DNA of 64,000 nucleotides from Armatimonadia bacterium (GTDB taxonomy: Bacteria; Armatimonadota; Zipacnadia; Zipacnadales; UBA11051). The stretch spans positions 21,920 through 85,919 of the forward strand of contig JBDKRC010000323.1 of NCBI GenBank assembly GCA_039683575.1, given 5' to 3'. The notes under the pieces are model-generated. The model was not told the origin of the DNA, ran no database searches, and saw only the letters and a list, made by a program, of their open reading frames with translations. Below, in pieces: positions 2,906-9,134 of this stretch (positions are counted from its first letter, which is position 1; every line of letters begins with the position of its first letter). A program made the translations under genes and the position numbers.

Positions 2906-4447
2906 TTATATTGTGCCGGTCGGCTGCTGCCGCTGCCTGCGCTTGTGCGCCACCACCCGGCATAGCGTGCCGTTGAGGTCCTTGATGGTCACCGGCTTGG
3001 CGAGTACTGCATCGGTCCGGCCGTCATCATTGCCGCCGACCTTCTCGCCCCACCCGGTAAGCAGCACCACTGCTGCCTGCGGCTGAAGCTTGCGGGCCAG
3101 ATAGGCCACTTCCCACCCGTCCACATCCGGCATCACGAGGTCCAGCACCAGCGCATCATAGCCATCCTGGTAGCGAATGAGACTCATGGCCTGCCGCCCG
3201 TCCACGGCCTGGCTCACGCGGTGCCCCAGGCTCTCCAGCGACAGCGCCACCGTCTCTCGCACCCCCGGCTCATCGTCTACGACCAGCACATTCAGGTTGC
3301 GCAGCAACTCCGGCACATCATCCGGCTTGTGCCGTAGTTCCCGCCTGACGGCCTTGAGGTTCGCCAGCGGCAGCGTGAGGCTTACTTCCGTGCCGGTGCC
3401 CGGCCGACTGCTCAGCGACAACCTGCCGCCAGAGCGGGTGACGATACCATGCACGACACTCAGCCCGAGGCCAAGATGCCCGGCCGCCTTGGTGCTGAAG
3501 AAAGGTTCGCAGGCCTGCCCGAGAGCCTGCTCCGTCATCCCCTGGCCGGTATCGCTGATTCGTATGATGGCTTCTTTGCGCTCGCACGCTACCGAGACGC
3601 AGACTTCGCCGCCCTCCGGCATTGCTTCACGGGCATTGTTGAGCAGGTGGCTGATGATGTCGCGGATATCCGGTGCGCTGGCCAGGACGTGCAAGTCCTC
3701 GGCCGCCTCGATCCTGAGATGCAGCGGGGTTCGTGATCCTGAAGCCGCCTCGGCGTCCGCCCAGCGAGCCTCGGCCGCAGTGCGCACCAACTGCCCCAAA
3801 TCCACGAGGTCCTGATCCGGGCTGGGCCGCGAGCCGCTGAAATCCTCGAGTTGCTGGAGAATGCGCGCCCCCTCGCCGGCCTTCTCATAGATAATCTGCA
3901 CGCATTCATTGCAGGCGGCGTTGTCACAGTCGGCGCGCGTCATCTCAGCCCGCAACAGGATCGTCGCCAGGAGGTTGTTGAAATCATGCGCGAAGGAACG
4001 GACGAGTTGCCCCTGAGCGTGCAACCTCTCCTTGCGCACCAGCCGTTCCTGCTCCTGGCGGGCGGCTGCTGCCTGCGAGCGCGCGGTCTTAAGCTGCAGG
4101 GCAGCAAGCGCCAGCCGGGCCACCAGGGCAAGCTGCTCCGCCATGCCGGCCGGGCCCTCCCCGTTGTCCGGGCACACTGCCACGGCGCGTGACGCTCCCC
4201 GCTGACGGTAGGCGAGCGCCCAGGCAGGCCCGTCAGGCGTGTTCACCTGCATGGGGTTTTCAGTCCGAACCTCCGCCGTTGCCTGTTCCCATTCAGTCAG
4301 GACCTCCGGCGAAAGGCGCCGCAACGAGAGTTCCTGGGTATTCCATTCATACAAGGCCCGTTCACTGCCGCTTGAGGTGTATGCGAGGCAGTGCCGGGCG
4401 CTTGCTTCAGGGCCCCCCGATTCGGTCCGCTCCTCGGTGTTTGCCAT
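2906..4447 (-). CDS. Hybrid sensor histidine kinase/response regulator
   Basis: H-box FAHDFNNLL, N-box LLNNAREAM, DTGQGM, GLGLGLS, C-terminal receiver VLVVDDE...LDLVMP. Start moved to the ATG at 4447 after AAGGA. Confidence 0.9.
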   Translation of the reverse strand: MANTEERTESGGPEASARHCLAYTSSGSERALYEWNTQELSLRRLSPEVLTEWEQATAEVRTENPMQVNTPDGPAWALAYRQRGASRAVAVCPDNGEGPAGMAEQLALVARLALAALQLKTARSQAAAARQEQERLVRKERLHAQGQLVRSFAHDFNNLLATILLRAEMTRADCDNAACNECVQIIYEKAGEGARILQQLEDFSGSRPSPDQDLVDLGQLVRTAAEARWADAEAASGSRTPLHLRIEAAEDLHVLASAPDIRDIISHLLNNAREAMPEGGEVCVSVACERKEAIIRISDTGQGMTEQALGQACEPFFSTKAAGHLGLGLSVVHGIVTRSGGRLSLSSRPGTGTEVSLTLPLANLKAVRRELRHKPDDVPELLRNLNVLVVDDEPGVRETVALSLESLGHRVSQAVDGRQAMSLIRYQDGYDALVLDLVMPDVDGWEVAYLARKLQPQAAVVLLTGWGEKVGGNDDGRTDAVLAKPVTIKDLNGTLCRVVAHKRRQRQQPTGTI

Positions 4448-4712
4448 CTCACAATCCTTGTCGCGCCCGGACGCAGACACATACGACTGCGTCAAGTCCA
4501 CGCGTTTCGGCAGCCCCCAGGATGGCGCCGGTCTCACGTCATATGCAATATAGGCCCAGGCTATCAAATGGATGGCAACGGGGACTCAAGATGGACGCAA
4601 GAAGGGCAGGATGAGAGGAAAGAAAGGGGACAAGACTGATCAAGTTCTACGCAAATCACACATGATGCTGCAATGACCGTCCATGGCGACGGCGGCCCGC
4701 GTTTCAGGGCAT

Positions 4713-5243
4713 CTACGCCTCGATAAGCTGTGGTGCGAAAGGCTCCAGATAGTCGCGCCAGTGCGGGTTCTTGGCCGCTGCCGCAAAGGTCGCAAATGAC
4801 AGGTAGGGGATGAAACGCGGACGGCGCGGCTTGCGCAGCAGCGCCATGTCGGCCTCCCGCAGCGTCTTACTCCCCTTCTTGTTGTTGCACTTCATGCAGC
4901 AGGCCACGAGGTTGTCCCAGGAGGCGGGCCCACCCTTCTGCCGGGGAATGACATGGTCAATGGTGAGGTCGCGCGAGCTATGCCCGCAGTACTGGCAGGT
5001 ATGACCGTCCCGCGCCAGGACGGCCCGGCGCGAGAGCTTCAGCTCGGGCAGGGGCCGGCGGATGGGGTTGGCCAGACGGACCACCGTGGGAAGAAGCAGC
5101 TCCGTGTTTGGCCCATGTACCACCTGCGTATCATGCTCAAGTGCAATCGCCTTGCCCAGGCAAAGCAAGGAGACGGCGCGCCGCCAACTGCAGACATTCA
5201 GCGGCTCGTAATTCTGATTCAGCACAAGTACCTGATTGTTCAT
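4713..5243 (-). CDS. HNH endonuclease, 176 aa, with PLMP-like N-terminus (IshB-like)
   Basis: RDGHTCQYCG...TIDHVIPRQKGG...WDNLVACCMKCNNKKG is an HNH/zinc-finger motif; N-terminus VLVLNQNYEPLNVCSWRRAVSLLCLGKA. Confidence 0.9.
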   Translation of the reverse strand: MNNQVLVLNQNYEPLNVCSWRRAVSLLCLGKAIALEHDTQVVHGPNTELLLPTVVRLANPIRRPLPELKLSRRAVLARDGHTCQYCGHSSRDLTIDHVIPRQKGGPASWDNLVACCMKCNNKKGSKTLREADMALLRKPRRPRFIPYLSFATFAAAAKNPHWRDYLEPFAPQLIEA

Positions 5244-5287
5244 GCGACATACACCGTAGAAGAAGGCTTCGGATCATCTACCTCAGG

Positions 5288-5325
5288 AAAAAGAAGAACC
5301 CGCAGACCTCGAGGGTTGCGGGTTC
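5288..5325 (-). terminator. Intrinsic terminator in the 5' leader of the HNH gene (putative attenuator)
   Basis: Minus strand GAACCCGCA-ACCCTCGAGGTC-TGCGGGTTC followed by TTCTTTTT, ~45 nt upstream of the HNH start. Confidence 0.75.
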
Positions 5326-5443
5326 AGAAACACGTTCGCAGGCACAGACAGGACTCGTAAAGCCCGTGTATCCGGAAACAGGCAGTCCTGTTGAACAGGG
5401 CCTGCCGATGCCATAGTTGTTGCTTGCCGAGACGCAGTAACAT
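5324..5443 (-). CDS. Putative 39-aa leader peptide (uORF)
   Basis: AGGAAG SD, then GTG ATG, encoding MLLRLGKQQLWHRQALFNRTACFRIHGLYESCLCLRTCF; its TGA overlaps the 5' arm of the terminator. Confidence 0.45.
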   Translation of the reverse strand: MLLRLGKQQLWHRQALFNRTACFRIHGLYESCLCLRTCF

Positions 5444-5511
5444 CACGTCTTCCTTTTTGGCAGGGAAGTCAGCGAGGCCGGCGCCATCGCAGCGGCACCG
5501 TGCCCGGCATA

Positions 5512-5541
5512 ATAATACCAAAAACGGCCTGTTCTTGTCAA
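5512..5541 (-). promoter_or_regulatory. Sigma70-type promoter for the HNH leader
   Basis: TTGACA-18 nt-TATTAT with a TG extended -10. Confidence 0.7.
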
Positions 5542-5682
5542 AGAGGAGCATGGGCTGGACCGCCCGTATCACCATGCAGGTACACCGCCATCAGCGTCGA
5601 AGCTGTGTGCGGTTCCTGAACCCTACGGGATCTCCCCCCGAACCTCGGGTTGACCAACTTGAAGCGAAGGAAGTGACAGTTC

Positions 5683-7074
5683 ATGTCAGACCTTGTTGCC
5701 GGGTTAGCCGCCGCCGACATCACGCCTCCCCTCGGCGTTGCCATGGCCGGGTACGGTGCGCGCGACAAGCCCGCTGAGAGCCTTGTGGACCCACTGCAGG
5801 CGCAGGCGTTGGTGCTTGGCTCCGGTGACCGCTATGCTGCAATAGTCTGCACCGATCTCATTGGGCTGCACCCGGATGTATATGTGCCGGTACGCGAACA
5901 GGCTGCGACCCTGTGTGGAATTGACCCCCATGCCATCATGGTCTGCTGCAGTCATACCCACTGGGGCCCGATCGTCAGTGGTGGGCGGTACATGCCCCAG
6001 TACCTGCTCGATACCATCTCGGAGGAGTACCGCCTGACGCTCATCAAGACGCTCGCGGGCCTGGTAGTGGAGGCGAAGGCCAAGGCCGTCCCCGTCACCG
6101 CAGGCTACGGGGCAGGCTTTGCCGACCGCATTACCTTCAACCGCCGCAACGTCGGGGATGACTTCAAGACCGAGATGCACCTGGTGCTTGATCCGCCTGC
6201 CGCCCACGCCGCCTCGGCGGAGGGAAACCGCCTCGCACGGGCGTGGCAGCGCGGCGAGCACAAGGGCCCGCGACTGAGCGGCCCGCTGCCGGAAGTCAGC
6301 GGCAAGCGTGTCGGGCCGGCCGACGCCGAAGTCACCGTTCTGCGGCTGCAGAAGACCTCCGGCGAGCCCTTTGCCGGCCTTGTCAACTTCGCCTGTCACG
6401 CCGTGTGCGGTGGCGGCGACTTCTACGGCTTCTCGGCTGACTTCCCCGGCTACGCCCGGAGTGTATTTGCGGACTTAATTGGCGCGCCGATGCTCTTTGC
6501 GGCGGGTGCCTCGGGCGATCAGGTCCCGCGTTGGCGCCAGAATGACGCCCGCCAGCGCGTGGGCAAGTCGATGGGCGCCGAGGCTGCCCGCGTGTGGCTG
6601 CAGACGGATGAGCAGCGCGCCGACCTGCCGCTGGCAACGGCCTATGAAGTCGTCAACCTGCCTCTGAGCGACAAGATCATCCCGGCAGAGCAGGCTCGCG
6701 CGAATCTCGCCGCCAAGCCCAATCCAGAGGGCACCGACGCTGTATACGAACGCTGCATGGTGGAACTCGCCGAAGAGACCGAGGGGTTGACCGAAGGCTA
6801 TCCGGCCGAGGTCTGGGCCATGGCGGTTGGTGATCTCGGCATTGTAGGTGTGCCCGGTGAGGTGCTTACGGAGATAGGCCTGCAGATCAAGCAGCGCTCG
6901 CCCTTCGCGCATACCATGGTTGTCAGCCTCGCCAACGGCTGCATCGGGTACCTGCCCACCGATGATGCTGTAGACGAAGGTGGCTACGAGCCCGGCTGGA
7001 CTCCGGTCGGCCAGGGCACCGAGAAGATGCTCGTGCAGACCAGCGTATCGCTCCTCCAGCAGCTCCACGGCTAG
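5683..7074 (+). CDS. Neutral/alkaline ceramidase-like hydrolase
   Basis: ADITPPLGVAMAGYGAR, SHTHWGP, NFACHA, GVPGE, GYLPT...GGYE motifs. Confidence 0.75.
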   Translation: MSDLVAGLAAADITPPLGVAMAGYGARDKPAESLVDPLQAQALVLGSGDRYAAIVCTDLIGLHPDVYVPVREQAATLCGIDPHAIMVCCSHTHWGPIVSGGRYMPQYLLDTISEEYRLTLIKTLAGLVVEAKAKAVPVTAGYGAGFADRITFNRRNVGDDFKTEMHLVLDPPAAHAASAEGNRLARAWQRGEHKGPRLSGPLPEVSGKRVGPADAEVTVLRLQKTSGEPFAGLVNFACHAVCGGGDFYGFSADFPGYARSVFADLIGAPMLFAAGASGDQVPRWRQNDARQRVGKSMGAEAARVWLQTDEQRADLPLATAYEVVNLPLSDKIIPAEQARANLAAKPNPEGTDAVYERCMVELAEETEGLTEGYPAEVWAMAVGDLGIVGVPGEVLTEIGLQIKQRSPFAHTMVVSLANGCIGYLPTDDAVDEGGYEPGWTPVGQGTEKMLVQTSVSLLQQLHG

Positions 7075-8140: not shown

Positions 8141-8644
8141 ATGCCGCTCAACAGCATGCGCGATCTGATCAAGCAAGAGCTGGAGGAGCTATACGGCGCT
8201 GAGGAACAGGTCACGGAGGCCCTGCCGAGGATGGCGCGTGCCGCGTACTCTGAAGATCTCAAGTCCGATCTCGAAGAGCATCTCGAGATAACTCGACAGC
8301 AAATGCAACGCCTGGAGCAGATCTTTCGGATTTTGGAACTGGAGCCCACTGGCAAACCATCCGCCGGCATCGCGGGTCTCCTGAGCGAGAGCAACGAAAT
8401 CATGAACTCACAGGGCGACCCCGACGTCAAGGATGCCGCCCTTATAGGCGCCGCGCAGAAGATTGAGCATTACGAGATGGCCACTTACGGCACCCTCAGG
8501 TCGCACGCTCTTGAAACAGGATACGACGAAGCTGCGGAGTTGCTGCAGGAGAGCCTGGACGAAGAGGCCGAGACCGACGAACTGCTGACGGAGATCGCGG
8601 AAAACGACATCAACGTTCGGGCCGCCGAGAGTACCTTGGTCTAA
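8141..8644 (+). CDS. YciE/YciF ferritin-like protein (DUF892)
   Basis: LEELYGAEEQ...HLEITRQQMQRLEQIF...DAALIGAAQKIEHYEMATYGTL. Confidence 0.9.
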   Translation: MPLNSMRDLIKQELEELYGAEEQVTEALPRMARAAYSEDLKSDLEEHLEITRQQMQRLEQIFRILELEPTGKPSAGIAGLLSESNEIMNSQGDPDVKDAALIGAAQKIEHYEMATYGTLRSHALETGYDEAAELLQESLDEEAETDELLTEIAENDINVRAAESTLV

Positions 8645-8675
8645 CGGGCGCGCAACGCCAGAAAGGAGCACGAGC

Positions 8676-9134
8676 ATGGGAACCAGGACACATGACGAGA
8701 CCATAGTGGACGCCCTGACCAAACTCGCGCGGGCCAACCGGGACAGCGAAGAGGGCTATACCACGGCGGCTGAGGCTGTCAGGGAGTCCGATGCCGACTT
8801 GCACACGCTGTTCCACAGATATGCTCAGCAGCGGGCGCATTTTGCCGGCGAGCTGGAGCAGGAGATACATACCTACGGAGGCGAGTATCCCGTTGAGGGG
8901 AGCATCAGCGGGACGCTTCGGAAGGGTTGGCTGAACCTCCGTTCAGCGATCAGCGGGCACGACTCGCATGCCATCGTCGCCGAGTGCCTCAAGGCCGAAA
9001 ACGCTACCCTGGAGGGCTACGAGGAGGCGCTGCGTCAAGACCTGCCCGAATATCTCAAAGAGATGATTCGCGAGCAGCATGACGACCTCCTGGAGACCCG
9101 CCAGCGGCTGCAGGCCATCAAGCAGGCGACCTGA
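8676..9134 (+). CDS. PA2169-family four-helix-bundle protein (DUF2383)
   Basis: LARANRDSEEGY...GSISGTLRKGWLNLRSAI...AECLKAE...YEEAL. Confidence 0.85.
   Translation: MGTRTHDETIVDALTKLARANRDSEEGYTTAAEAVRESDADLHTLFHRYAQQRAHFAGELEQEIHTYGGEYPVEGSISGTLRKGWLNLRSAISGHDSHAIVAECLKAENATLEGYEEALRQDLPEYLKEMIREQHDDLLETRQRLQAIKQAT

Follow-up and report, generated by a model that had tools for sequence, protein, structure and literature searches.

We describe here a nuclease gene and the leader that precedes it on a 64,000-nucleotide (nt) stretch of contig JBDKRC010000323.1 from an Armatimonadia bacterium, a stretch that we refer to as the window. The gene, an open reading frame (ORF) at 4713..5243 on the minus strand, encodes a protein of 176 amino acids (aa) that begins MNNQVLVLNQNYEPLNVCSWRRAVSLLCLGKA. 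Its leader, the ~260 nt between the promoter and the nuclease ORF, looks like the carrier of a short translated reading frame and not like a folded RNA of the omegaRNA type. We favor, with moderate confidence, the explanation that a translation-dependent leader-peptide attenuator controls the nuclease. The features of the locus, in the order of transcription, are listed below with the evidence for each.

5512..5541, minus strand: sigma-70-type promoter TTGACA-18 nt-(TG)-TATTAT, matching at 11 of 12 positions
5475..5505, minus strand: 5'-terminal hairpin of the leader transcript (minimum free energy, MFE, and centroid structures)
5449..5468, minus strand: hairpin CUUCC...GGAAG, which pairs the AAGGAAG of the small ORF (MFE structure, sequence)
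~5381-5406, minus strand: third leader hairpin (MFE fold)
5324..5443, minus strand: small leader ORF of 39 codons plus TGA, MLLRLGKQQLWHRQALFNRTACFRIHGLYESCLCLRTCF (ORF list, frame comparison in relatives)
5369..5377, minus strand: core TTC CGG ATA of the small ORF, reading Phe-Arg-Ile (conserved in relatives)
~5296..5326, minus strand: stem-loop of the intrinsic terminator, GAACCCGCAACC...GGUCUGCGGGUUC, -17.9 kcal/mol (MFE and centroid structures)
5288..5295, minus strand: U-tract of the terminator, UUCUUUUU (sequence, hairpin-plus-T-run scan)
5244..5287, minus strand: spacer from the terminator to the nuclease ATG, free of promoter-like and Shine-Dalgarno-like sites
5046..5243, minus strand: PLMP-like N-terminal domain, residues 1-66 (AlphaFold2 model and structure search)
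4815..5042, minus strand: HNH nuclease domain, residues 68-143, with CxxC...CxxC and D96-H97...N111...N120 (Pfam, profile, structure)
4713..4814, minus strand: conserved C-terminal helical tail (W162, Y165, L166, P168, F169) and stop codon (46-homolog profile, AlphaFold2 model)

An earlier note on this DNA had pointed out the 176-aa ORF, a near-consensus promoter at 5541-5512 and four hairpins, and all of these are recovered by the ORF list, the promoter scan and the MFE fold. The note overlooked the leader ORF (5443..5324, minus strand), which is part of an 83-aa frame at 5324..5575. An AAGGAAG site sits 6 nt ahead of the ATG of this small ORF, whose TGA (5326-5324) shares two bases with the start of the terminator stem. 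The hairpin at 5449-5468 pairs the AAGGAAG site, so that RNA structure could in turn control whether the leader ORF is translated.

The promoter is the only promoter-like site between 4400 and 5900, a region for which shuffled sequences give 0.4 +/- 0.7 sites. Transcription would start near 5505 and yield a leader transcript of ~218 nt. We compared the upstream regions of orthologs from the same order; these genomes are kin, so the counts given here overstate the number of independent cases. Promoters of the type TTGACA-17/18-TGnTAnnAT with a score of at least 8.5 were found upstream of 30 of the 32 orthologous leaders, and the predicted leaders range in length from 139 to 269 nt. When sigma-70-type sites were scanned for between the start of the small ORF and the nuclease ATG, none with a score of at least 8.5 was found at any of the 32 loci. 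The leader was not seen upstream of orthologs in other phyla, nor in some lineages of the same order (L028, L031 and L036), and in these three lineages a promoter of the same type stands directly before the nuclease gene. Judged from sequence, promoter, leader and nuclease gene make up one predicted transcription unit. The terminated leader transcript of ~215 nt that had been proposed earlier agrees well with this layout, a ~218-nt RNA ending upstream of the nuclease gene being the likely main product of the promoter.

Terminators were sought with our own scan for a hairpin followed by a run of T; a general terminator scan did not list the hairpin at 5296-5325. Our scan missed two hairpins that are visible by eye (L006 and L022) and passed a doubtful site in L028 that overlaps a promoter. 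A terminator lies 25-160 nt upstream of the nuclease ATG at 32 of the 38 order-level loci whose upstream sequence is long enough (one of these 32 doubtful), and a similar terminator was found at 45 of 60 loci from 31 families of the phylum (again one doubtful). At distant loci (<55 % identity) the hairpin is present in only 23 cases out of 131. About 10 of these 23 hairpins follow a frame of ~90 aa or more and probably end the upstream gene, while another ~10, all from loci of 51-55 % identity, are leader-like terminators of a second type. The pairing of leader and nuclease persists over many families despite the lack of any other synteny.

The usual arrangement within the order consists of a strong promoter, ~150-200 nt, a TTYCGNATA block, the terminator ~50 nt further on and 25-110 nt to the nuclease ATG. 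The TTYCGNATA block reads Phe-Arg-Ile inside an ORF in every case. We defined the reading frame by this core alone and then compared it with the other two frames at 28 loci. The core frame is open for at least 69 nt upstream at all 28 loci, compared to 21 and 16 loci for the other frames. Its stop codon falls between -15 and +14 nt from the first base of the terminator stem at all 28 loci, while this is the case at only 4 loci for each of the other two frames. Core and terminator lie 49-65 nt apart at 27 of the loci and 40 nt apart at the remaining one (L196).

Substitutions between close relatives also have the pattern expected of codons in parts of the peptide. The segment PAYALEFRVSP differs between L199 and L201 by 7 synonymous and 0 non-synonymous codon changes, and RHLL(A/V)WDSSLHCVC differs between L239 and L240 by 11 synonymous changes and 1 non-synonymous change. 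Further families of the phylum keep motifs of their own, LRLLED(G/S) and RHRHA(L/V)(Y/F)H, again with synonymous variation, and another leader family keeps RGRHAAVGF. Taken together, the comparison shows the promoter, an ORF that appears to be translated, the position of its stop codon, the terminator and the missing second promoter.

The core itself is strongly constrained at the level of codons. Its first position is Phe in 27 of 27 cases (TTC in 22, TTT in 5) and its second is Arg in 21 cases, encoded by CGG, CGC or CGA, with Leu (3), Tyr (2) and His (1) in the others. The third position is Ile in 22 cases, Val in 3 and Leu in 2. All 22 Ile codons are ATA, and the five non-Ile cases read CTA (twice), GTA, GTG and GTT. 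For comparison, ATA accounts for 12 % of the Ile codons in the long ORFs of the window. Its share is 39/64 in the 32 small ORFs versus 25/217 in the nuclease genes of the same loci and, outside the core, ATA still makes up 17 of the 42 Ile codons of the small ORFs. The enrichment of the remaining A-ending codons in these ORFs is just ~2-fold. The fixation and enrichment of ATA are suggestive of regulatory codons or of an arrest motif. A more speculative and doubtful alternative is that the leader peptides represent a new class of nascent-chain arrest sequences.

We also observed a second type of leader on the metagenome contigs L122, L124, L125 and L126 and in one phylum-level family. Its peptide reads W-R-D-T-A-I-I-R-I and contains up to three ATA codons (tandem). 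The frame runs on across the terminator hairpin to a stop codon 7-16 nt ahead of the nuclease start or overlapping it (TGATG), an arrangement that suggests translational coupling with the nuclease.

We propose that most transcripts would end at the hairpin and that the nuclease would be made only from read-through transcripts, with read-through depending on translation of the leader ORF. A ribosome following close behind the RNA polymerase would reach the stop codon and cover the 5' arm of the terminator, and the hairpin would not form. A ribosome keeping pace would have this effect because the stop codon is placed on the 5' arm or immediately ahead of it. A lagging ribosome would leave the hairpin free to form, and the lag may come from the Phe-Arg-Ile core with its rare AUA, located 43-59 nt upstream of the stem, or from poor initiation. 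In this scheme we infer that termination is conditional, in which direction the switch works, and that the step sensed is AUA decoding or the nascent peptide.

A number of observations weigh against such an attenuator, besides the kinship that inflates the counts given above. Selection on the leader ORF as a whole is weakly purifying, with a ratio of non-synonymous to synonymous changes (pN/pS) of 0.39-1.19 in frame 0. This ratio is clearly below that of the other frames only in the L199/L200/L201 pairs, several pairs being indistinguishable, and the entropy at the three codon positions (1.58, 1.50 and 1.71) differs only slightly. The high G+C content leaves many frames open by chance, and any ordinary small gene also has its stop codon close before a terminator. 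Shine-Dalgarno-like sites precede 9 of the 32 small ORFs versus 13 of the 32 nuclease starts and do not discriminate. At about half of the loci the stop codon lies 10-15 nt before the stem, barely within reach of a terminating ribosome. The invariant ATA could reflect a constraint at the RNA or DNA level and not a codon effect. No general antiterminator was found either: across 40 loci, pairing of the terminator 5' arm with the 72 nt that precede the terminator has a mean z of +0.18 relative to dinucleotide shuffles. Finally, metatranscriptome contigs (four sets from one wastewater study) of a related strain, 95-99 % alike, cover only 4614-5245. They contain the nuclease coding region and its 3' flank and none of them lies on the leader, though contigs cannot show absence. 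DNA carry-over in those wastewater RNA libraries is possible.

A classical three-hairpin attenuator is unsupported, as complementarity to the 5' arm is no better than in the shuffled sequences. Five of the 40 loci do reach z < -1.5, and four of these (L010, L011, L015 and L115) carry a Phe-Arg-Ile leader. As a separate observation, in L008, L010, L011 and L015 the bases just after the core, 40-63 nt before the terminator, complement the terminator 5' arm. The antiterminator-like duplex of L010 reaches -22.2 kcal/mol (z -2.85), and this pairing is unseen in most other lineages.

The bmrB leader of Bacillus subtilis offers a point of comparison. In that leader, translation of the ORF and rare codons set the read-through of an intrinsic terminator (PMC4191407). 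The bmrB-bmrCD region and our locus have in common a small upstream ORF, an intrinsic terminator at the end of that ORF, rare codons and one promoter (PMC4191407). The two differ in that alternative stem-loops (an anti-terminator) are described for bmrB-bmrCD, whereas none is detectably conserved here, and in that the regulated gene here is a nuclease and not a transporter or biosynthetic operon (PMC4191407). We consider it somewhat probable that the regulatory element works like a leader-peptide attenuator minus the classical anti-terminator. Our literature searches turned up no description of an HNH or IshB gene preceded by a leader peptide or attenuator.

Another explanation, to which we grant a minor but real possibility, is that the small ORF and its terminator form a gene of their own, whose small protein product acts in trans (as a partner, an inhibitor or an antitoxin-like modulator), with the nuclease co-expressed weakly through terminator leakage. 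Such a gene would fit the short peptide motifs under purifying selection and the gene order that is kept without other synteny, and a strong promoter combined with a strong terminator would give an abundant small mRNA. However, only 3-11 residues are conserved in leader peptides of 25-67 aa, and the motifs are specific to each family. L028, L031, L036 and the orthologs of other phyla keep the nuclease without the small ORF, and a fixed rare ATA in the core is unnecessary for a function exerted purely by the protein. Pfam and NCBIfam searches with four of the leader peptides gave no family. The sole NCBIfam rows were obtained for the L010 peptide and name cobalt-precorrin-6A reductase at chance level (E 0.042 and 0.12, with 13.4 and 11.8 bits versus cut-offs of 431 and 302). 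A predicted complex of the nuclease with the 39-aa peptide (score 0.01, mark 0.32) speaks neither way on binding.

It is also conceivable, though in our view unlikely, that promoter, ORF and terminator together serve as a constitutive damper or insulator, holding a potentially harmful nuclease at a low and fixed level. The ORF would then only stabilise or clear the leader RNA and nothing would be sensed. The terminator is indeed strong and universal, the antiterminator is not conserved and no ligand-binding RNA family matches the leader, all of which agree with a damper. Yet a damper could do without the conserved peptide core, the fixed rare codon, the fixed core-terminator distance of ~49-65 nt and the placement of the stop codon at the base of the stem.

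Pfam matches in the 176 aa are confined to HNH families (HNH_5 at 2e-15 and HNH at 3.1e-14, both at residues 83-134), and a RuvC domain was not found. We built a sequence profile from 46 homologs, across which C83, C86, D96, H97, N111, C116, C119 and N120 are invariant. The catalytic and zinc-binding residues of the HNH domain are intact in the nuclease. Compared with the PDB sequences, this profile matches TbaIscB best (8.4e-18), with Cas9d chains at 1.5e-11, and in each case it is the HNH domain that matches. An alignment of the PLMP region with TbaIscB residues 497-530 is visible but not significant (1.8 bits), and the literal PLMP residues read EPLNV in the nuclease.

An AlphaFold2 model of the whole nuclease has a mean predicted local distance difference test score (pLDDT) of 92. 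On rescoring of the Foldseek matches, its HNH part aligns with NbaCas9 (9k32) at Z 10.0 and its residues 3-66 align with HfmIscB residues 2-52 at Z 6.4 and a root-mean-square deviation (rmsd) of 1.7. The Foldseek search with the whole model was swamped by the HNH domain, and we therefore modelled the N-terminal domain alone (residues 1-68, pLDDT 88). For this domain Foldseek returned six IscB/IsrB chains at a probability of 0.90-0.99 and two further IscB chains at 0.69 and 0.75, the E-values for these IscB/IsrB chains being weak (0.19-0.83). A VIA wide search of 48,161 PDB representatives, which is independent of Foldseek, gave 9k2z (Z 7.7), 9k30 (7.0), 9nvu (6.0), 8dmb (5.8) and 9liq (5.3). 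All five are N-termini of IscB/IsrB proteins (chain residues ~1-56), and the next match has a Z of 2.9. The only clear structural matches of the modelled N-terminal domain are therefore the PLMP domains of IscB/IsrB.

IshB is described as a PLMP+HNH protein of about 180 aa without RuvC, and such proteins have been named as a possible origin of the IscB/Cas9 lineage; the passages on IshB in these sources report no function for them (PMC11610941, PMC10734217, PMC13284715, PMC12477157, bioRxiv 10.1101/2023.06.13.544871). The nuclease has this architecture. The suggestion made earlier from the sequence that the protein is IshB-like is borne out by the PLMP-fold comparison, where Z values of 7.7-5.3 stand against 2.9 for the next match, and by an HNH domain nearest to TbaIscB and Cas9d. 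Within what those passages say of IshB, the likeness extends to the size of 176 aa, the PLMP-fold N-terminus, the HNH of the IscB/Cas9d type and the lack of RuvC. By the same measure the nuclease departs from IshB in having neither the insertion-sequence context (IS200/IS605-type) that the name implies nor an adjoining omegaRNA-like element.

With the OMEGA ribonucleoproteins of IscB and IsrB (9k2z, 9k30, 8dmb and 7utn) the nuclease shares the PLMP fold (Z 5.3-7.7, rmsd 1.9-3.4 over 49-53 residues), and with IscB also the HNH domain. Unlike them it has no RuvC and no TAM-interacting domain, and thus lacks most of the omegaRNA-binding surface. Many of the homologs carry the JGI name of McrA-type HNH restriction endonucleases. 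The HNH domain is indeed similar to that of EcoKMcrA (6ghc, Z 7.0, model residues 61-140), but the match is confined to HNH with an rmsd of 9.4, and the N-terminus is PLMP-like and not the DNA-modification reader of McrA.

The leader was examined for RNA structure in several ways. The MFE fold of 5505-5286 has hairpins at ~5505-5475, 5467-5449, 5406-5381 and 5326-5297, followed by UUCUUUUU, and the first and last of these are also present in the centroid structure. The fold has a z-score of -2.16, with 3 of 200 shuffles folding equally well or better. A search of Rfam over 4000-6500 at E <= 1 returned only a chance match to SNORD112 on the other strand (E 0.18), and the whole window has 0 matches at the gathering thresholds. 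In the RNAalifold consensus of 8 leaders from one genus the terminator alone is retained, at -18.5 kcal/mol in all, and the hairpin at the 5' end (5475..5505) is not conserved between genera. As a side observation, GGGGCGCAAGT is conserved in one genus (L008, L010, L011 and L015) ~25-30 nt before the start of the small ORF, at alignment columns ~33-45. Its frame differs between L010 and L008, so that it is a noncoding element at the RNA or DNA level.

We regard it as very improbable that the terminated leader is a structured non-coding RNA binding the PLMP domain (an omegaRNA-like partner or guide) or a riboswitch-like element: the IscB/IsrB PLMP chains matched do come from omegaRNA complexes, the leader folds somewhat better than shuffles and GGGGCGCAAGT is kept in the 5' untranslated region of one genus in two different frames, yet the leader belongs to no Rfam family and has a consensus fold reduced to the terminator, is only 44-57 % identical in nucleotides between close or sister genera where the protein is 77-82 % identical, has a conserved core that behaves as codons, is missing in many members of the protein family, and comes with no guide-like variable segment and no mobile-element context. 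No conserved structured non-coding RNA, the hallmark of an OMEGA system, adjoins the nuclease gene. The earlier note had offered the leader transcript either as an RNA partner of the nuclease or as its regulator. With no Rfam match, a consensus fold limited to the terminator, a patchy distribution and a conserved part that is codon-like, the first proposal is not supported. The second survives in altered form, with a translated leader ORF and a terminator taking the place of a structured RNA.

The nuclease gene and the leader are each present once in the 6.2-Mb assembly. No transposase was found among the eight neighbouring proteins (within 12 kb), which include a hybrid histidine kinase, a ceramidase-like protein, DUF892, DUF2383, an HlyD-type protein and an epimerase. 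The DUF892 (9.7e-47) and DUF2383 (1.3e-28) genes are adjacent at 8141-9134 on the plus strand, a few kb away, an ordinary context with no link to the finding. The genes flanking the nuclease in the window recur at no other locus compared.

One ortholog of 55-82 % identity is present in 40 of the 41 genomes of the order, the genome of the window included. A phylum-wide sample of 121 genomes yielded one ortholog in 112 of them, or in 102 of 108 when only high-quality genomes are counted. Records titled Ignavibacteria, Bacteroidota, Gemmatimonadota, Acidobacteriota and others contain full-length relatives at 42-50 % identity. The nuclease is a vertically inherited, single-copy chromosomal core gene of the phylum and is non-mobile. 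The view that it is not a mobile copy, already put forward from the sequence of the locus, is in line with the single copy, the transposase-free neighbourhood and the 112 of 121 genomes.

A few individual loci deserve mention. A second full-length copy of 58 % identity (residues 3-174) is found at G015:C40:251-766 (locus L197), with a promoter directly upstream and without a leader. Two extra matches are partial and give no proof of a second gene, one restricted to the HNH domain (G008:C1:6581-6793, residues 72-142) and one of 27 residues at a contig end (G012:C135:9-89). The match to the ortholog at G081:C69:157-666 has one in-frame TAG, which may reflect a sequencing error, decay to a pseudogene or recoding.

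In one phylum, then, an IshB-like protein is an ordinary and near-universal chromosomal gene that has no adjoining guide RNA and sits behind what appears to be a valve made of a leader ORF and a terminator. The locus is unsuitable for mining as an RNA-guided system. The regulatory element, on the other hand, is concrete and easily testable, with the conserved rare codon as the obvious first target. We hypothesize, as a speculation that we hold to be doubtful, that fast-evolving leader peptides with a constant rare A-ending codon (above all Ile-AUA next to an aromatic residue) ~50-60 nt before the terminator gate a phylum-wide nuclease, so that its synthesis would depend on how closely ribosomes follow the polymerase or on how much AUA-reading tRNA-Ile is available. 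If this gating were true, it would point to a role of IshB-like proteins in translation- or RNA-linked quality control and not in transposition. The pattern as a whole suggests that the cell needs tight, translation-linked control of the nuclease, which may be a clue to its function.

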